From Eledone cirrhosa (taxonomy: Eukaryota), in NCBI GenBank assembly GCA_964016885.1, contig OZ024748.1, positions 12,586,001 through 12,650,000 on the forward strand: a stretch of 64,000 nucleotides of DNA. The letters run 5' to 3'. Made by a program: the position numbers and the translations under genes. Numbering within the stretch: the stretch's first letter is position 1; every line of letters begins with the position of its first letter. The notes beneath the pieces were generated by a model. It saw only the letters and a list, made by a program, of their open reading frames with translations. It was not told the origin of the DNA and made no database searches. Positions 3,138 to 31,205 of the stretch are shown piece by piece.

Positions 3138-3495
3138 CACAGTATATATAATATATATACGAATTTATAGATACAAACAGTCATTGTGTTTGTAGCTGTT
3201 GTTTCGTATTTTAATTACCGCCACTTAGATACATGTAATTAAATACCTCTCATTAGAAGGACTAATTAAATTCAATGCATAATTATATATATATATATAT
3301 ATATATATACACAAACAACCACACATATGTACATATAAAATAATTATTTCTGCTCAACGCAGCGAATATTAAAATATTAGAAATATTTTAAATGTAGGCG
3401 TTATAACTACAATTTATAAACCTCGCTGTGAATATTTCAACAAATGTGAAAAACATGTTGCTGTTCTCTTTTGTACACCTGAAAACAAAAGAGAA

Positions 3496-3540
3496 TTCTT
3501 TTGCATGTTTCACGGCTATTAAGCTGTTCATCAGAAGATA
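3496..3540 (-). ncRNA. Degenerate type I hammerhead ribozyme remnant
   Basis: Minus strand TCTT-CTGATGA-ACAGCT-TAAT-AGCCGT-GAAA-CATG-CA-AAAGA; stem II has one mismatch and U16.1 is C; octamer ATGCAAAT lies 105 nt upstream (3632-3639, minus). Confidence 0.55.
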
Positions 3541-3677
3541 TGTGCTGTTATATTTCTGTGCACAAAGAGAGCTATAATCAACGCTATTTATATCACACAC
3601 AAACTAGGATTTACCTGGAATGGCTAGTTTAATTTGCATAATGTACTTTTGTCACCGAATGTGTAATTAATGAAATA

Positions 3678-9175: not shown

Positions 9176-9375
9176 NNNNNNNNNNNNNNNNNNNNNNNNN
9201 NNNNNNNNNNNNNNNNNNNNNNNNNNNNNNNNNNNNNNNNNNNNNNNNNNNNNNNNNNNNNNNNNNNNNNNNNNNNNNNNNNNNNNNNNNNNNNNNNNNN
9301 NNNNNNNNNNNNNNNNNNNNNNNNNNNNNNNNNNNNNNNNNNNNNNNNNNNNNNNNNNNNNNNNNNNNNNNNNNN
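9176..9375. other. Assembly gap (200 N)
   Basis: Run of N directly abutting array A. Confidence 1.
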
Positions 9376-9752
9376 GTAAATATTGCTGATGAGTTGTAAC
9401 AACAACGAAACTAGTTCAATATTCCTTGTCTGGCTTTCTGGAGAATAGAGGAAAGGTGTTTCCTCAAAAACCAGTATGACTCTAAAAACCGGTTTGTCTG
9501 TGTGTTTACATACAGAATAGCTGGCCACTCACAGTAAAGTGACCAGTGAAAAAACTTGGTACATCTACATATGTATACGTGTGTGTATTCATATACATAC
9601 TAGTATTTCAGTATACATATATGGATGTACATCTTTAACTTAATTGTTTAAGCGTCAGTCATACAAAAGTGAGTTACAAACGAAACGAAATTTAATTTCG
9701 TTTCGTTATTTGTTTTTATCGTCTCCGTTGAACCGGTACTTACTCACACTCT

Positions 9753-9805
9753 ATGCAAATTGGTCTGCCCACTACTAATTTTCATAGAAAAAGCATATAA
9801 CGATA
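9753..9805 (+). promoter_or_regulatory. Putative snRNA-type internal promoter module (octamer, PSE-like block, TATA-like), repeated in every unit
   Basis: ATGCAAAT 9753-9760, TAATTTTCATA 9776-9786, GCATATAA 9793-9800; same order conserved in the diverged array B unit. Confidence 0.45.
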
Positions 9806-9840
9806 TGTGCTTTTACGATTCTCTAGAGAGGCCGGAAGAT

Positions 9841-9893
9841 AGGTAAATATTGCTGATGAGTTGTAACAACAACGAAACTAGTTCAATATTCCT
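9841..9893 (+). ncRNA. Type I hammerhead ribozyme (representative of the 22 copies in array A)
   Basis: AGG-TA bulge-AATATTG / CTGATGA / GTTGT-AACA-ACAAC / GAAA / C-TA-G / TT^ / CAATATT-CCT; predicted cleavage after GUU at 9883. Confidence 0.9.
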
Positions 9894-12800
9894 TGTCTGG
9901 CTTTCTGGAGAATAGAGGAAAGGTGTTTCCTCAAAAACCAGTATGACTCTAAAAACCGGTTTGTCTGTGTGTTTACATACAGAATAGCTGGCCACTCACA
10001 GTAAAGTGACCAGTGAAAAAACTTGGTACATCTACATATGTATACGTGTGTGTATTCATATACATACTAGTATTTCAGTATACATATATGGATGTACATC
10101 TTTAACTTAATTGTTTAAGCGTCAGTCATACAAAAGTGAGTTACAAACGAAACGAAATTTAATTTCGTTTCGTTATTTGTTTTTATCGTCTCCGTTGAAC
10201 CGGTACTTACTCACACTCTATGCAAATTGGTCTGCCCACTACTAATTTTCATAGAAAAAGCATATAACGATATGTGCTTTTACGATTCTCTAGAGAGGCC
10301 GGAAGATAGGTAAATATTGCTGATGAGTTGTAACAACAACGAAACTAGTTCAATATTCCTTGTCTGGCTTTCTGGAGAATAGAGGAAAGGTGTTTCCTCA
10401 AAAACCAGTATGACTCTAAAAACCGGTTTGTCTGTGTGTTTACATACAGAATAGCTGGCCACTCACAGTAAAGTGACCAGTGAAAAAACTTGGTACATCT
10501 ACATATGTATACGTGTGTGTATTCATATACATACTAGTATTTCAGTATACATATATGGATGTACATCTTTAACTTAATTGTTTAAGCGTCAGTCATACAA
10601 AAGTGAGTTACAAACGAAACGAAATTTAATTTCGTTTCGTTATTTGTTTTTATCGTCTCCGTTGAACCGGTACTTACTCACACTCTATGCAAATTGGTCT
10701 GCCCACTACTAATTTTCATAGAAAAAGCATATAACGATATGTGCTTTTACGATTCTCTAGAGAGGCCGGAAGATAGGTAAATATTGCTGATGAGTTGTAA
10801 CAACAACGAAACTAGTTCAATATTCCTTGTCTGGCTTTCTGGAGAATAGAGGAAAGGTGTTTCCTCAAAAACCAGTATGACTCTAAAAACCGGTTTGTCT
10901 GTGTGTTTACATACAGAATAGCTGGCCACTCACAGTAAAGTGACCAGTGAAAAAACTTGGTACATCTACATATGTATACGTGTGTGTATTCATATACATA
11001 CTAGTATTTCAGTATACATATATGGATGTACATCTTTAACTTAATTGTTTAAGCGTCAGTCATACAAAAGTGAGTTACAAACGAAACGAAATTTAATTTC
11101 GTTTCGTTATTTGTTTTTATCGTCTCCGTTGAACCGGTACTTACTCACACTCTATGCAAATTGGTCTGCCCACTACTAATTTTCATAGAAAAAGCATATA
11201 ACGATATGTGCTTTTACGATTCTCTAGAGAGGCCGGAAGATAGGTAAATATTGCTGATGAGTTGTAACAACAACGAAACTAGTTCAATATTCCTTGTCTG
11301 GCTTTCTGGAGAATAGAGGAAAGGTGTTTCCTCAAAAACCAGTATGACTCTAAAAACCGGTTTGTCTGTGTGTTTACATACAGAATAGCTGGCCACTCAC
11401 AGTAAAGTGACCAGTGAAAAAACTTGGTACATCTACATATGTATACGTGTGTGTATTCATATACATACTAGTATTTCAGTATACATATATGGATGTACAT
11501 CTTTAACTTAATTGTTTAAGCGTCAGTCATACAAAAGTGAGTTACAAACGAAACGAAATTTAATTTCGTTTCGTTATTTGTTTTTATCGTCTCCGTTGAA
11601 CCGGTACTTACTCACACTCTATGCAAATTGGTCTGCCCACTACTAATTTTCATAGAAAAAGCATATAACGATATGTGCTTTTACGATTCTCTAGAGAGGC
11701 CGGAAGATAGGTAAATATTGCTGATGAGTTGTAACAACAACGAAACTAGTTCAATATTCCTTGTCTGGCTTTCTGGAGAATAGAGGAAAGGTGTTTCCTC
11801 AAAAACCAGTATGACTCTAAAAACCGGTTTGTCTGTGTGTTTACATACAGAATAGCTGGCCACTCACAGTAAAGTGACCAGTGAAAAAACTTGGTACATC
11901 TACATATGTATACGTGTGTGTATTCATATACATACTAGTATTTCAGTATACATATATGGATGTACATCTTTAACTTAATTGTTTAAGCGTCAGTCATACA
12001 AAAGTGAGTTACAAACGAAACGAAATTTAATTTCGTTTCGTTATTTGTTTTTATCGTCTCCGTTGAACCGGTACTTACTCACACTCTATGCAAATTGGTC
12101 TGCCCACTACTAATTTTCATAGAAAAAGCATATAACGATATGTGCTTTTACGATTCTCTAGAGAGGCCGGAAGATAGGTAAATATTGCTGATGAGTTGTA
12201 ACAACAACGAAACTAGTTCAATATTCCTTGTCTGGCTTTCTGGAGAATAGAGGAAAGGTGTTTCCTCAAAAACCAGTATGACTCTAAAAACCGGTTTGTC
12301 TGTGTGTTTACATACAGAATAGCTGGCCACTCACAGTAAAGTGACCAGTGAAAAAACTTGGTACATCTACATATGTATACGTGTGTGTATTCATATACAT
12401 ACTAGTATTTCAGTATACATATATGGATGTACATCTTTAACTTAATTGTTTAAGCGTCAGTCATACAAAAGTGAGTTACAAACGAAACGAAATTTAATTT
12501 CGTTTCGTTATTTGTTTTTATCGTCTCCGTTGAACCGGTACTTACTCACACTCTATGCAAATTGGTCTGCCCACTACTAATTTTCATAGAAAAAGCATAT
12601 AACGATATGTGCTTTTACGATTCTCTAGAGAGGCCGGAAGATAGGTAAATATTGCTGATGAGTTGTAACAACAACGAAACTAGTTCAATATTCCTTGTCT
12701 GGCTTTCTGGAGAATAGAGGAAAGGTGTTTCCTCAAAAACCAGTATGACTCTAAAAACCGGTTTGTCTGTGTGTTTACATACAGAATAGCTGGCCACTCA

Positions 12801-15800
12801 CAGTAAAGTGACCAGTGAAAAAACTTGGTACATCTACATATGTATACGTGTGTGTATTCATATACATACTAGTATTTCAGTATACATATATGGATGTACA
12901 TCTTTAACTTAATTGTTTAAGCGTCAGTCATACAAAAGTGAGTTACAAACGAAACGAAATTTAATTTCGTTTCGTTATTTGTTTTTATCGTCTCCGTTGA
13001 ACCGGTACTTACTCACACTCTATGCAAATTGGTCTGCCCACTACTAATTTTCATAGAAAAAGCATATAACGATATGTGCTTTTACGATTCTCTAGAGAGG
13101 CCGGAAGATAGGTAAATATTGCTGATGAGTTGTAACAACAACGAAACTAGTTCAATATTCCTTGTCTGGCTTTCTGGAGAATAGAGGAAAGGTGTTTCCT
13201 CAAAAACCAGTATGACTCTAAAAACCGGTTTGTCTGTGTGTTTACATACAGAATAGCTGGCCACTCACAGTAAAGTGACCAGTGAAAAAACTTGGTACAT
13301 CTACATATGTATACGTGTGTGTATTCATATACATACTAGTATTTCAGTATACATATATGGATGTACATCTTTAACTTAATTGTTTAAGCGTCAGTCATAC
13401 AAAAGTGAGTTACAAACGAAACGAAATTTAATTTCGTTTCGTTATTTGTTTTTATCGTCTCCGTTGAACCGGTACTTACTCACACTCTATGCAAATTGGT
13501 CTGCCCACTACTAATTTTCATAGAAAAAGCATATAACGATATGTGCTTTTACGATTCTCTAGAGAGGCCGGAAGATAGGTAAATATTGCTGATGAGTTGT
13601 AACAACAACGAAACTAGTTCAATATTCCTTGTCTGGCTTTCTGGAGAATAGAGGAAAGGTGTTTCCTCAAAAACCAGTATGACTCTAAAAACCGGTTTGT
13701 CTGTGTGTTTACATACAGAATAGCTGGCCACTCACAGTAAAGTGACCAGTGAAAAAACTTGGTACATCTACATATGTATACGTGTGTGTATTCATATACA
13801 TACTAGTATTTCAGTATACATATATGGATGTACATCTTTAACTTAATTGTTTAAGCGTCAGTCATACAAAAGTGAGTTACAAACGAAACGAAATTTAATT
13901 TCGTTTCGTTATTTGTTTTTATCGTCTCCGTTGAACCGGTACTTACTCACACTCTATGCAAATTGGTCTGCCCACTACTAATTTTCATAGAAAAAGCATA
14001 TAACGATATGTGCTTTTACGATTCTCTAGAGAGGCCGGAAGATAGGTAAATATTGCTGATGAGTTGTAACAACAACGAAACTAGTTCAATATTCCTTGTC
14101 TGGCTTTCTGGAGAATAGAGGAAAGGTGTTTCCTCAAAAACCAGTATGACTCTAAAAACCGGTTTGTCTGTGTGTTTACATACAGAATAGCTGGCCACTC
14201 ACAGTAAAGTGACCAGTGAAAAAACTTGGTACATCTACATATGTATACGTGTGTGTATTCATATACATACTAGTATTTCAGTATACATATATGGATGTAC
14301 ATCTTTAACTTAATTGTTTAAGCGTCAGTCATACAAAAGTGAGTTACAAACGAAACGAAATTTAATTTCGTTTCGTTATTTGTTTTTATCGTCTCCGTTG
14401 AACCGGTACTTACTCACACTCTATGCAAATTGGTCTGCCCACTACTAATTTTCATAGAAAAAGCATATAACGATATGTGCTTTTACGATTCTCTAGAGAG
14501 GCCGGAAGATAGGTAAATATTGCTGATGAGTTGTAACAACAACGAAACTAGTTCAATATTCCTTGTCTGGCTTTCTGGAGAATAGAGGAAAGGTGTTTCC
14601 TCAAAAACCAGTATGACTCTAAAAACCGGTTTGTCTGTGTGTTTACATACAGAATAGCTGGCCACTCACAGTAAAGTGACCAGTGAAAAAACTTGGTACA
14701 TCTACATATGTATACGTGTGTGTATTCATATACATACTAGTATTTCAGTATACATATATGGATGTACATCTTTAACTTAATTGTTTAAGCGTCAGTCATA
14801 CAAAAGTGAGTTACAAACGAAACGAAATTTAATTTCGTTTCGTTATTTGTTTTTATCGTCTCCGTTGAACCGGTACTTACTCACACTCTATGCAAATTGG
14901 TCTGCCCACTACTAATTTTCATAGAAAAAGCATATAACGATATGTGCTTTTACGATTCTCTAGAGAGGCCGGAAGATAGGTAAATATTGCTGATGAGTTG
15001 TAACAACAACGAAACTAGTTCAATATTCCTTGTCTGGCTTTCTGGAGAATAGAGGAAAGGTGTTTCCTCAAAAACCAGTATGACTCTAAAAACCGGTTTG
15101 TCTGTGTGTTTACATACAGAATAGCTGGCCACTCACAGTAAAGTGACCAGTGAAAAAACTTGGTACATCTACATATGTATACGTGTGTGTATTCATATAC
15201 ATACTAGTATTTCAGTATACATATATGGATGTACATCTTTAACTTAATTGTTTAAGCGTCAGTCATACAAAAGTGAGTTACAAACGAAACGAAATTTAAT
15301 TTCGTTTCGTTATTTGTTTTTATCGTCTCCGTTGAACCGGTACTTACTCACACTCTATGCAAATTGGTCTGCCCACTACTAATTTTCATAGAAAAAGCAT
15401 ATAACGATATGTGCTTTTACGATTCTCTAGAGAGGCCGGAAGATAGGTAAATATTGCTGATGAGTTGTAACAACAACGAAACTAGTTCAATATTCCTTGT
15501 CTGGCTTTCTGGAGAATAGAGGAAAGGTGTTTCCTCAAAAACCAGTATGACTCTAAAAACCGGTTTGTCTGTGTGTTTACATACAGAATAGCTGGCCACT
15601 CACAGTAAAGTGACCAGTGAAAAAACTTGGTACATCTACATATGTATACGTGTGTGTATTCATATACATACTAGTATTTCAGTATACATATATGGATGTA
15701 CATCTTTAACTTAATTGTTTAAGCGTCAGTCATACAAAAGTGAGTTACAAACGAAACGAAATTTAATTTCGTTTCGTTATTTGTTTTTATCGTCTCCGTT

Positions 15801-18800
15801 GAACCGGTACTTACTCACACTCTATGCAAATTGGTCTGCCCACTACTAATTTTCATAGAAAAAGCATATAACGATATGTGCTTTTACGATTCTCTAGAGA
15901 GGCCGGAAGATAGGTAAATATTGCTGATGAGTTGTAACAACAACGAAACTAGTTCAATATTCCTTGTCTGGCTTTCTGGAGAATAGAGGAAAGGTGTTTC
16001 CTCAAAAACCAGTATGACTCTAAAAACCGGTTTGTCTGTGTGTTTACATACAGAATAGCTGGCCACTCACAGTAAAGTGACCAGTGAAAAAACTTGGTAC
16101 ATCTACATATGTATACGTGTGTGTATTCATATACATACTAGTATTTCAGTATACATATATGGATGTACATCTTTAACTTAATTGTTTAAGCGTCAGTCAT
16201 ACAAAAGTGAGTTACAAACGAAACGAAATTTAATTTCGTTTCGTTATTTGTTTTTATCGTCTCCGTTGAACCGGTACTTACTCACACTCTATGCAAATTG
16301 GTCTGCCCACTACTAATTTTCATAGAAAAAGCATATAACGATATGTGCTTTTACGATTCTCTAGAGAGGCCGGAAGATAGGTAAATATTGCTGATGAGTT
16401 GTAACAACAACGAAACTAGTTCAATATTCCTTGTCTGGCTTTCTGGAGAATAGAGGAAAGGTGTTTCCTCAAAAACCAGTATGACTCTAAAAACCGGTTT
16501 GTCTGTGTGTTTACATACAGAATAGCTGGCCACTCACAGTAAAGTGACCAGTGAAAAAACTTGGTACATCTACATATGTATACGTGTGTGTATTCATATA
16601 CATACTAGTATTTCAGTATACATATATGGATGTACATCTTTAACTTAATTGTTTAAGCGTCAGTCATACAAAAGTGAGTTACAAACGAAACGAAATTTAA
16701 TTTCGTTTCGTTATTTGTTTTTATCGTCTCCGTTGAACCGGTACTTACTCACACTCTATGCAAATTGGTCTGCCCACTACTAATTTTCATAGAAAAAGCA
16801 TATAACGATATGTGCTTTTACGATTCTCTAGAGAGGCCGGAAGATAGGTAAATATTGCTGATGAGTTGTAACAACAACGAAACTAGTTCAATATTCCTTG
16901 TCTGGCTTTCTGGAGAATAGAGGAAAGGTGTTTCCTCAAAAACCAGTATGACTCTAAAAACCGGTTTGTCTGTGTGTTTACATACAGAATAGCTGGCCAC
17001 TCACAGTAAAGTGACCAGTGAAAAAACTTGGTACATCTACATATGTATACGTGTGTGTATTCATATACATACTAGTATTTCAGTATACATATATGGATGT
17101 ACATCTTTAACTTAATTGTTTAAGCGTCAGTCATACAAAAGTGAGTTACAAACGAAACGAAATTTAATTTCGTTTCGTTATTTGTTTTTATCGTCTCCGT
17201 TGAACCGGTACTTACTCACACTCTATGCAAATTGGTCTGCCCACTACTAATTTTCATAGAAAAAGCATATAACGATATGTGCTTTTACGATTCTCTAGAG
17301 AGGCCGGAAGATAGGTAAATATTGCTGATGAGTTGTAACAACAACGAAACTAGTTCAATATTCCTTGTCTGGCTTTCTGGAGAATAGAGGAAAGGTGTTT
17401 CCTCAAAAACCAGTATGACTCTAAAAACCGGTTTGTCTGTGTGTTTACATACAGAATAGCTGGCCACTCACAGTAAAGTGACCAGTGAAAAAACTTGGTA
17501 CATCTACATATGTATACGTGTGTGTATTCATATACATACTAGTATTTCAGTATACATATATGGATGTACATCTTTAACTTAATTGTTTAAGCGTCAGTCA
17601 TACAAAAGTGAGTTACAAACGAAACGAAATTTAATTTCGTTTCGTTATTTGTTTTTATCGTCTCCGTTGAACCGGTACTTACTCACACTCTATGCAAATT
17701 GGTCTGCCCACTACTAATTTTCATAGAAAAAGCATATAACGATATGTGCTTTTACGATTCTCTAGAGAGGCCGGAAGATAGGTAAATATTGCTGATGAGT
17801 TGTAACAACAACGAAACTAGTTCAATATTCCTTGTCTGGCTTTCTGGAGAATAGAGGAAAGGTGTTTCCTCAAAAACCAGTATGACTCTAAAAACCGGTT
17901 TGTCTGTGTGTTTACATACAGAATAGCTGGCCACTCACAGTAAAGTGACCAGTGAAAAAACTTGGTACATCTACATATGTATACGTGTGTGTATTCATAT
18001 ACATACTAGTATTTCAGTATACATATATGGATGTACATCTTTAACTTAATTGTTTAAGCGTCAGTCATACAAAAGTGAGTTACAAACGAAACGAAATTTA
18101 ATTTCGTTTCGTTATTTGTTTTTATCGTCTCCGTTGAACCGGTACTTACTCACACTCTATGCAAATTGGTCTGCCCACTACTAATTTTCATAGAAAAAGC
18201 ATATAACGATATGTGCTTTTACGATTCTCTAGAGAGGCCGGAAGATAGGTAAATATTGCTGATGAGTTGTAACAACAACGAAACTAGTTCAATATTCCTT
18301 GTCTGGCTTTCTGGAGAATAGAGGAAAGGTGTTTCCTCAAAAACCAGTATGACTCTAAAAACCGGTTTGTCTGTGTGTTTACATACAGAATAGCTGGCCA
18401 CTCACAGTAAAGTGACCAGTGAAAAAACTTGGTACATCTACATATGTATACGTGTGTGTATTCATATACATACTAGTATTTCAGTATACATATATGGATG
18501 TACATCTTTAACTTAATTGTTTAAGCGTCAGTCATACAAAAGTGAGTTACAAACGAAACGAAATTTAATTTCGTTTCGTTATTTGTTTTTATCGTCTCCG
18601 TTGAACCGGTACTTACTCACACTCTATGCAAATTGGTCTGCCCACTACTAATTTTCATAGAAAAAGCATATAACGATATGTGCTTTTACGATTCTCTAGA
18701 GAGGCCGGAAGATAGGTAAATATTGCTGATGAGTTGTAACAACAACGAAACTAGTTCAATATTCCTTGTCTGGCTTTCTGGAGAATAGAGGAAAGGTGTT

Positions 18801-19452
18801 TCCTCAAAAACCAGTATGACTCTAAAAACCGGTTTGTCTGTGTGTTTACATACAGAATAGCTGGCCACTCACAGTAAAGTGACCAGTGAAAAAACTTGGT
18901 ACATCTACATATGTATACGTGTGTGTATTCATATACATACTAGTATTTCAGTATACATATATGGATGTACATCTTTAACTTAATTGTTTAAGCGTCAGTC
19001 ATACAAAAGTGAGTTACAAACGAAACGAAATTTAATTTCGTTTCGTTATTTGTTTTTATCGTCTCCGTTGAACCGGTACTTACTCACACTCTATGCAAAT
19101 TGGTCTGCCCACTACTAATTTTCATAGAAAAAGCATATAACGATATGTGCTTTTACGATTCTCTAGAGAGGCCGGAAGATAGGTAAATATTGCTGATGAG
19201 TTGTAACAACAACGAAACTAGTTCAATATTCCTTGTCTGGCTTTCTGGAGAATAGAGGAAAGGTGTTTCCTCAAAAACCAGTATGACTCTAAAAACCGGT
19301 TTGTCTGTGTGTTTACATACAGAATAGCTGGCCACTCACAGTAAAGTGACCAGTGAAAAAACTTGGTACATCTACATATGTATACGTGTGTGTATTCATA
19401 TACATACTAGTATTTCAGTATACATATATGGATGTACATCTTTAACTTAATT

Positions 19453-19642
<190 letters not shown>

Positions 19643-27432: not shown

Positions 27433-27979
<547 letters not shown>

Positions 27980-27983
<4 letters not shown>

Positions 27984-28254
27984 TATGCATGTATACGTAC
28001 ATACATATATGTATACAGGCGTACAGTAGCATGCACATATATATATATATATACATATATACATACATGTGCATACAGGTACACATACATATATGCACGT
28101 ATCAGTTTAGCGGCGCCAACGTCGCTTTGTTCGTTTGTAAACAAACTGAACAGCCTGAATTTATGCCATACGGTGTTAAGGCAACCACGTCACCTTTTTG
28201 TTCAACACTGACACAGGAACGATGTACTAGTTTCAAGCTTGTTAGCTATCATCA
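27980..28254 (-). mobile_element. Inverted partial unit of array B
   Basis: Reverse complement of the unit from TGATGA (HHR core) to CATGCATACTTA; left end joins (TA)n; TCA microhomology at 28252-28254. Confidence 0.9.
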
Positions 28255-28336
28255 CTCAATATGCAAATTAGGCTGCTCAGCCGTTAATTTTCATAAGGAA
28301 AGTATATACTTTCGAACGTTCAACTATCTGGCAGAT

Positions 28337-28389
28337 GGGTAAACGGTGCTGATGATAGCTAACAAGCTTGAAACTAGTACATCGTTCCT
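28337..28389 (+). ncRNA. Type I hammerhead ribozyme (array B unit 1)
   Basis: GGG-TA-AACGGTG / CTGATGA / T-AGCT-AACA-AGCT-T / GAAA / C-TA-G / TA^ / CATCGTT-CCT; predicted cleavage after GUA at 28379; U-U mismatch at 10.1/11.1. Confidence 0.85.
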
Positions 28390-28802
28390 GTGTCAGTGTT
28401 GAACAAAAAGGTGACGTGGTTGCCTTAACACCGTATGGCATAAATTCAGGCTGTTCAGTTTGTTTACAAACGAACAAAGCGACGTTGGCGCCGCTAAACT
28501 GATACGTGCATATATGTATGTGTACCTGTATGCACATGTATGTATATATGTATATATATATATATATGTGCATGCTACTGTACGCCTGTATACATATATG
28601 TATGTACGTATACATGCATACTTACATTTAAGTAAGTGCCATACTAAGAGTGAGAAATGAAATTTCATTTTCATTTTGTTTCAATTTATCGTTTTCGGTA
28701 TGCCTGACCGATTTAACTCACTCAATATGCAAATTAGGCTGCTCAGCCGTTAATTTTCATAAGGAAAGTATATACTTTCGAACGTTCAACTATCTGGCAG
28801 AT

Positions 28803-28855
28803 GGGTAAACGGTGCTGATGATAGCTAACAAGCTTGAAACTAGTACATCGTTCCT
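28803..28855 (+). ncRNA. Type I hammerhead ribozyme (array B unit 2)
   Basis: Same sequence as 28337-28389, shifted +466. Confidence 0.85.
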
Positions 28856-29268
28856 GTGTCAGTGTTGAACAAAAAGGTGACGTGGTTGCCTTAACACCGT
28901 ATGGCATAAATTCAGGCTGTTCAGTTTGTTTACAAACGAACAAAGCGACGTTGGCGCCGCTAAACTGATACGTGCATATATGTATGTGTACCTGTATGCA
29001 CATGTATGTATATATGTATATATATATATATATGTGCATGCTACTGTACGCCTGTATACATATATGTATGTACGTATACATGCATACTTACATTTAAGTA
29101 AGTGCCATACTAAGAGTGAGAAATGAAATTTCATTTTCATTTTGTTTCAATTCATCGTTTTCGGTATGCCTGACCGATTTAACTCACTCAATATGCAAAT
29201 TAGGCTGCTCAGCCGTTAATTTTCATAAGGAAAGTATATACTTTCGAACGTTCAACTATCTGGCAGAT

Positions 29269-29321
29269 GGGTAAACGGTGCTGATGATAGCTAACAAGCT
29301 TGAAACTAGTACATCGTTCCT
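29269..29321 (+). ncRNA. Type I hammerhead ribozyme (array B unit 3)
   Basis: Same sequence as 28337-28389, shifted +932. Confidence 0.85.
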
Positions 29322-29615
29322 GTGTCAGTGTTGAACAAAAAGGTGACGTGGTTGCCTTAACACCGTATGGCATAAATTCAGGCTGTTCAGTTTGTTTACA
29401 AACGAACAAAGCGACGTTGGCGCCGCTAAACTGATACGTGCATATATGTATGTGTACCTGTATGCACATGTATGTATATATGTATATATATATATATATG
29501 TGCATGCTACTGTACGCCTGTATACATATATGTATGTACGTATACATGCATACTTACATTTAAGTAAGTGCCATACTAAGAGTGAGAAATGAAATTTCAT
29601 TTTCATTTTGTTTCA

Positions 29616-29668
<53 letters not shown>

Positions 29669-30934: not shown

Positions 30935-31000
30935 TTAGAAAGTGAGGTTTTTTTTACAAAATGAAAAATAACCGAGGTGTCCTACACGAGTGAAAGTATA
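30935..31000 (-). mobile_element. Short terminal fragment of the 27571 element in (TA)n
   Basis: TAGAAAGTG.GGTTTTTTTTACAAAATGAAAAATAACCGAGGTGTCCTACACGAGTGAAAGTATA is near identical to 27571-27635. Confidence 0.8.
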
Positions 31001-31016
31001 TATATATATATATATA

Positions 31017-31205
31017 GTTTTAATATAGATGAGTTTCTACAGGACTAGAACTGTTTCATTCTTTAGAAATCATCTGATGATTTCTAAAGAATGAAACAGT
31101 TCTAGTCCTGTAGAATCTCATCTATATTAAAACTTTTATACTCTGCTATGTATTGAGTACCTTACTTACTGTGGTTACCTCCGATTCAACCCGGAATAAT
31201 TTACC
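31017..31205 (+). mobile_element. Fold-back element with 5'-truncated HHR, in (TA)n (copy 1)
   Basis: 58-bp arms (31017-31074/31076-31133, 1 mismatch); CTGATGA-T-TTC-TAAA-GAA-T-GAAA-CAGTTCTAG-TC at 31074-31107; second copy at 60887-61065. Confidence 0.75.

Follow-up and report, generated by a model that had tools for sequence, protein, structure and literature searches.

The closest described systems are the non-LTR retrozymes of metazoans, short tandem noncoding repeats with one type I hammerhead ribozyme per unit, a short palindromic stem III, highly self-paired RNAs, and likely mobilization by Penelope-like elements; their units are reported to measure 170 to 400 nt (PMC7229834; statements on this and the other sources cited by accession number apply to the portions of their text available to us). 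Animal retrozyme RNAs are abundant, and according to a 2020 review (PMC7761336), plant and metazoan retrozymes seem to be promoterless and metazoan units to have no conserved motif; with no promoter seen, the review invokes read-through transcription. Promoters have been cited for two satellites, newt satellite II, with an snRNA promoter for RNA polymerase II (Pol II), as well as a schistosome satellite, with a Pol III promoter (PMC2220036). Penelope-like elements form partial tandems with an inverted 5′ copy, have (TA)n microsatellites as targets, and carry hammerheads in their canonical clades (PMC8557442 and PMC4209133). Among snRNA promoters, those of insects combine a PSEA of about 21 to 25 bp with a PSEB or a TATA box, the latter at positions 34 to 41 in U6 genes; all 101 Pol II promoters and all 23 Pol III promoters have C6, a SNAPc footprint of 23 to 25 bp has been suggested, and the word “octamer” does not occur in that paper (PMC1761439). 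In vertebrates, the octamer, or DSE, usually lies at positions −250 to −170, though the compact RPPH1 departs from this, and two CG pairs at −62/−61 matter for the binding of human SNAPc (PMC9652321).

The window analyzed here (the whole stretch of DNA, 64,000 nucleotides) contains two arrays of tandem units, A and B (Table 1). Judged by their sequence features, both are non-LTR retrozymes as defined in PMC7229834: the units are short and noncoding, each with one type I hammerhead; the monomers are highly self-paired in predicted folds (z scores of −9.0 and −7.8 in the two families, far better than shuffles); and a 5′ inversion and (TA)n junctions mark retrotransposition. At 466 to 467 nt, the units exceed the size range reported for metazoan retrozymes. 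The arrays resemble Penelope-like elements in their partial tandems, inverted 5′ copy, (TA)n targets, and hammerheads, but their units hold no reverse transcriptase frame and are nonautonomous. All 21 units compared in array A have one identical sequence, and those of array B differ from each other at a single site; given this near identity within arrays, A and B count as two independent observations, not 24. Their whole-unit alignment is identical at 261 of 494 columns (a background of 53%), and the arrays are homologous families.

Table 1. Positions of the arrays, ribozymes, and upstream motifs within the window
Feature	Position	Strand	Remarks
Candidate decayed element C (unconfirmed)	3310..3660	-	Extended octamer 3640-3630; pairing arm 3606-3596; hammerhead-like core from 3534; (TA)n end
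N gap	9176-9375		Adjoins the 5′ side of array A
Retrozyme array A	9376..19457	+	467-bp unit × 21.6; 3′ end in (TA)n; 5′ end masked by N gap
TTTATCGT block	9715..9722	+	Conserved; probably the main junction of 3′ insertion ends with (TA)n; octamer 33 nt downstream
Conserved upstream block of A, first complete copy	9742..9799	+	58 bases; recurs every 467 bp; 45/59 columns identical to B, P = 0.006
Predicted RNA hairpin, octamer paired with TAATTTTCATA	9750..9788	+	Single C-U mismatch, retained in both families
Extended octamer	9752..9762	+	ATGCAAAT at 9753-9760; 5′ arm of predicted hairpin
Gap-free PSE-sized block	9776..9799	+	20/24 identical to B; 9776-9786, PSE of the earlier note and predicted 3′ arm; 9795-9799, TATA-like box
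Type I hammerhead of A	9841..9893	+	Palindromic stem III; predicted cleavage after 9883; Rfam HH9 E = 1e-7, under gathering score
5′ inverted piece of array B	27980..28254	-	Copy of 28350-28624; spans cleavage site
Retrozyme array B	28252..29621	+	466-bp unit × 2.9; begins 9 nt ahead of octamer; ends in (TA)n
B copy of module	28260..28308	+	Octamer 28261-28268; 24-bp block 28285-28308
Type I hammerhead of B	28337..28389	+	Predicted cleavage after 28379; HH9 E = 0.034, under gathering score

The ribozymes of A and B are identical at 33 of 46 columns, and two-sided (compensatory) changes affect 3 of 7 upper stem I pairs and 3 of 5 stem II pairs; run X4 contributes an additional two-sided change, at 9861/9872 of the A hammerhead. 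Stem III is the palindrome ACTAGT, and hammerheads with this type of stem III are described as cleaving in dimers (PMC4209133). No family reached its gathering score in an Rfam scan of the window. Among 18 listed variants in the family, 7 lie at unpaired sites and pairing is kept in 9 of the 11 at paired sites, so, on the modeled folds, selection appears to act on the family at the level of its RNA.

Twelve contigs of run X1 exit unit A at 9719 into (TA)n, and array B ends at the homologous site. Because the cleavage site lies within the inverted piece of B, a pattern described for Penelope-like insertions (PMC8557442), the template of the B insertion was likely a circular or multimeric RNA that bore the putative promoter discussed below. 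A 497-nt contig of run X4 closes on itself, as a circular RNA would, although tandem DNA would look alike and the kind of run is not given.

Upstream of their ribozymes, A and B share a 58-bp block, whereas neither a promoter nor a conserved motif is reported for metazoan retrozymes in the available text of PMC7761336. An earlier note on this DNA had proposed that every ribozyme is preceded by an snRNA-type promoter made up of an octamer, a PSE, and a TATA-like box, with diverging spacers. The motifs are indeed common to both families: ATGCAAAT starts at 9753 and TAATTTTCATA at 9776, in 21 copies with a 467-bp period, and the corresponding starts in B are 28261 and 28285, in 3 copies, with the octamer 100 nt (A) and 88 nt (B) from CTGATGA. 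The distance from TAATTTTCATA to ATATA is 19 nt in both, and the 24-bp pattern is matched 24 times in the window, where shuffles lead one to expect 0.09 matches. “Every ribozyme” holds for 21 of 22 copies in A and all 3 forward copies in B, the remaining one being the first A ribozyme, which adjoins the N gap. As to the spacers, that between octamer and TAATTTTCATA has diverged only partly (8 of 14 columns identical), while the stretch between block and ribozyme is identical at 6 of 37 positions.

Since A and B are homologous, the meaningful test is one of relative conservation. The block is identical at 45 of 59 columns, against 261 of 494 overall (P = 0.006 by column permutation, which ignores clustering by helices), and at the sequence level it is as conserved as the ribozyme core: two 24-nt windows of the block score 20/24 and 19/24, the best ribozyme window scores 19/24, and only a low-complexity TA window is higher. 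Directly 3′ of the 24-bp block, identity drops to 3 of 21, and an indel of 13 nt distinguishes A from B between block and ribozyme. Within the block, AAAG-ATATA is kept although it forms a stem in the predicted fold of A and partly a loop in that of B, which points to constraint on sequence rather than on pairing. No listed variant falls within 9776 to 9799, an uninformative result given that the chance of 11 variants missing the motif bases is 0.44. GTATG/CATAC and GTGAG/CTCAC are other blocks conserved between A and B.

Absent from the earlier note is a relationship between two of its motifs: taken as its reverse complement, TAATTTTCATA agrees with the extended octamer at 10 of 11 positions. 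The predicted hairpin has a stability z score of −3.2 in both families, with 2 and 1 of 200 shuffles folding as well, and its pair probabilities in circular folds are 0.77 to 1.0. The C-U mismatch is retained although its closure would stabilize the hairpin. Position 9762 is the only arm difference between A and B, and it is A (as in B) in 186,415 of the 196,977 units of depth in run X1 (95%); this allele makes the arms equal and converts a G-U pair to A-U. The window copy of array A has the minority allele there. A rare variant, 9759 A>G (1.6% of X1 depth and one X5 contig), breaks the octamer and keeps the pair. No two-sided change distinguishes the hairpins of A and B, and 35 of 49 kept pairs are likewise identical in ten other hand-picked helices, so that by this sequence comparison the missing covariation is not exceptional (about P = 0.4 over 11 helices, from a hand table anchored on shared motifs and hence biased to sameness). 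RNAalifold on the two monomers recovered the octamer hairpin and misaligned the other helices, and the hand table was used instead.

A possible third element, candidate C, lies on the opposite strand near the start of the window. Its extended octamer is complete at 3640, 105 nt ahead of a CTGATGA at 3534. Next come a stem II in which 5 of 6 pairs form and then GAAAC; the stem III palindrome is broken, stem I has only four pairs, and the candidate also has a hairpin of 11 bp and terminates in (TA)n. The 52,067 bases outside the arrays contain four octamers and two hammerhead-like cores, for which the spacing seen in C has an estimated probability of 0.0014 for one core; the other three stray octamers in the window have neither a pairing arm nor a ribozyme core. 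Five of the 11 positions in the downstream arm of C depart from TAATTTTCATA, and yet this arm pairs with the octamer arm at 11 of 11, and arms that pair in this way occur in 13 of 20,596 other stretches of the window. Candidate C matches no Rfam hammerhead and gave no hit with a model based on the ribozymes of A and B (the match of that model at 3441 to 3517 is on the strand opposite to C and has no core), and its alignments to A and B are no better than those of shuffles (192 and 136 of 500). From its sequence, the odds that it is a real third element are near even; if it is, the octamer would be the sequence-constrained part and TAATTTTCATA mainly its RNA partner. Three of the five differences between the arms of C and A are of the A-to-G type; speculatively, this would agree with RNA editing that reverse transcription then made permanent.

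The account that we put first, and hold tentatively, is that the 58-bp block may be an internal octamer-dependent promoter for Pol II that the RNA retains, an arrangement also reported for newt satellite 2. Pointing this way are the octamer, exact in A, B, and candidate C; the identity of the block (45/59) next to that of the ribozyme (33/46); the gap-free 24-bp block, which has the size of a SNAPc footprint; the kept C-U mismatch and AAAG-ATATA; the match to T5 and C8 of insects; the newt (Pol II) and schistosome (Pol III) satellites as precedents; and the inverted piece of B, whose template likely bore the putative promoter. Arguing against it are the complementarity of the octamer and TAATTTTCATA at 10 of 11 positions, directly explained by the hairpin; a T in place of C6 and an unconserved PSEB frame; the 9759 variant, which keeps the pair and not the octamer; the 13-nt indel; and candidate C, which keeps the pairing but not TAATTTTCATA. 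Newt satellite 2 is likewise a hammerhead tandem repeat with an internal promoter; its activity was reportedly tested experimentally (Coats, Zhang and Epstein, 1994), and it is said to involve the octamer and to have no TATA box, whereas the A/B block is a candidate promoter from sequence, with an octamer that sits only 23 to 24 nt from a candidate PSE complementary to it. The lack of apparent promoters in metazoan retrozymes (PMC7761336) also counts against the proposal.

As an internal promoter, the block would act as follows. A POU factor would bind the octamer, transcription would start near the ribozyme (about 9837 to 9846 in A, taking an offset of 61 to 70 nt), and the polymerase would read through the array. 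Hammerheads would then cut out promoter-containing monomers, probably as dimers; the monomers would be circularized, and a Penelope-like reverse transcriptase would take circular or multimeric RNA as its template for insertion into (TA)n. The block lies inside the cleavage-to-cleavage unit, so it would be copied into the RNA, carried along, and restored at each reinsertion, in agreement with the suggestion of the earlier note that the promoter stays within the transcript. In that RNA, TAATTTTCATA is predicted to pair with the octamer.

The finer anatomy proposed in the earlier note agrees only in part with known snRNA promoters. Counted from the start of TAATTTTCATA, the insect PSEA invariants T5 and C8 are matched in a conserved block of about 24 bp, but the insect-invariant C6 is T, and the proposed PSE is itself the reverse complement of the octamer arm; because this consensus is that of insects and the host is probably not one, the mismatch lowers the probability of a SNAPc site without reducing it to nothing. 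ATATA occupies positions 20 to 24 from the proposed PSE start, compared with 34 to 41 for the insect U6 TATA box (PMC1761439), and is probably not a TATA box; neither positions 34 to 41 nor positions 30 to 37, the PSEB frame, are conserved between A and B. The exact octamer lies 23 to 24 nt before the proposed PSE, whereas the vertebrate DSE is usually at −250 to −170, compact RPPH1 being the exception. Human U6 and RPPH1 also have an octamer upstream of a PSE-sized block, RPPH1 with similar compactness, but the 5′ half of the A/B block has no CC that would correspond to the human CG pairs (PMC9652321). What does have the size of a PSE (21 to 25 bp) is the gap-free 24-bp block, identical at 20 of 24 positions, and TAATTTTCATA would be either purely a pairing arm or also the 5′ half of such a site. 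On these sequence comparisons, we regard a true SNAPc site in the block as doubtful. The same reserve applies to a dual code in which the octamer and a 24-bp SNAPc site would drive Pol II as DNA while their transcripts pair as a hairpin, the whole being a captured snRNA-gene promoter; this is an unlikely arrangement, in which neither side could close the C-U mismatch without losing its factor.

The main rival, possible though we incline against it, is that the octamer and TAATTTTCATA serve only as RNA, forming the two arms of a hairpin to which a protein binds (a helper reverse transcriptase, for instance, could dock there beside the priming site), with the arrays transcribed by read-through from outside. 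The hairpin stability in both families, the folding of the monomers far beyond that of shuffles, the pairing kept by 9 of 11 variants at paired positions, and the position of the main 3′ junction, which in A and B alike is 33 nt upstream of the octamer, all suit such a role, as does the arm of candidate C, which pairs at 11 of 11 positions despite 5 differences from TAATTTTCATA, a property of only 13 of 20,596 stretches. It would leave the conservation of AAAG-ATATA unexplained, however, and the invariant arm is exactly a known transcription factor motif, one that arises by chance, on either strand, in only 1.9% (A) and 7.2% (B) of shuffled units; in candidate C, itself unconfirmed, it is just the nonoctamer arm that changes.

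We consider it improbable that the block has no specific function and merely changed less by chance after the common ancestry of A and B. There are only two independent sequences, other blocks (GTATG/CATAC and GTGAG/CTCAC) are conserved too, and the family variants are uninformative, with a 0.44 chance of 11 missing the motif bases; but the permutation test, which ignores helix clustering, gives P = 0.006 for the block, and identity falls to 6 of 37 immediately downstream. Pol III stops at T runs, and before the next ribozyme each monomer has one T5 and two T4 (A) or four T4 (B), which argues against Pol III read-through, as full monomers would be rare. A U6-type (type 3 Pol III) promoter, which the three-part reading of the earlier note implies and which would combine the octamer with a PSE and a TATA box, is thus very improbable, the order of the motifs and the human RPPH1 DSE directly adjacent to its PSE (PMC9652321) notwithstanding; ATATA, moreover, lies at 20 to 24 rather than 34 to 41.

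Retrozymes and the newt promoter precedent are known, which limits the surprise; what would be new is retrozymes with a conserved octamer module. Its presence in two diverged families supplies a short, mutable candidate that makes the promoter question directly testable. If the block matches host snRNA promoters, it would show a cephalopod-type PSE; if it acts as an RNA hairpin, it would be a candidate for the signal that the helper reverse transcriptase recognizes. Were the dual-coded promoter to be true, every reinserted multimer would be self-expressing, and self-promoted retrozymes would span newts, schistosomes, and a probable cephalopod, against the read-through view.

Searches of the literature and of public collections gave few points of comparison. 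Neither a promoter in animal retrozymes nor a mollusc PSE is found in the available portions of PMC10886601, PMC6466107, PMC3464664, PMC8480181, PMC5460494, PMC6962438, and PMC11722881, and the rest of the text searched likewise held no mollusc PSE. In the parts of the retrozyme and hammerhead literature covered, “octamer” was met in the sense of RNA multimers, and octopus hammerhead tandem repeats of the A/B kind were not found. No snRNA occurs in 19460 to 64000 among the 150 of 158 Rfam E-value matches listed. A motif scan of metagenomes returned 53 loci, without a downstream ribozyme core or a BLAST match to A or B, and the 20 of these scanned with Rfam yielded one tRNA; 2 viral and 14 prokaryote loci from the motif scan had no Rfam match, and the ribozyme pattern had 0 loci in viral and genome contigs. 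The motif matches in public collections are apparently due to chance.

Several further observations concern the arrays and their surroundings. The microsatellite load and a SINE-like repeat have an octopus-like look. The 21 identical units of array A, over 10 kb abutting the N gap, would reflect either a very recent insertion or an assembly effect. Near-identical unit A sequence (9700 to 10400) occurs in runs X1 to X20, which bear 16 organism labels and one wastewater label and come from 17 studies; 871 contigs on unit A come from X1, 4 from X4, and 10 from X5, no RNA run is among the listed runs carrying the sequence, and its presence under so many organism labels could be due to cross-run contamination or to wide spread. 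Directly upstream of array B is a nested palindrome, with arms at 27637-27683/27858-27904 and 27705-27758/27760-27813. A sequence of ~60 bp, a short TA-associated repeat, is common to ~27570 to 27635 and 30935 to 31000, in each case after a (TA)n-rich run. Finally, positions 31016 to 31134 form a 59-bp inverted repeat (98% complementary), with (TA)n just before it and another ~70 bp after it; a minimal hammerhead-like core (CTGATGA...GAAAC) starts at its center, placing the inversion junction at the core, as in array B.
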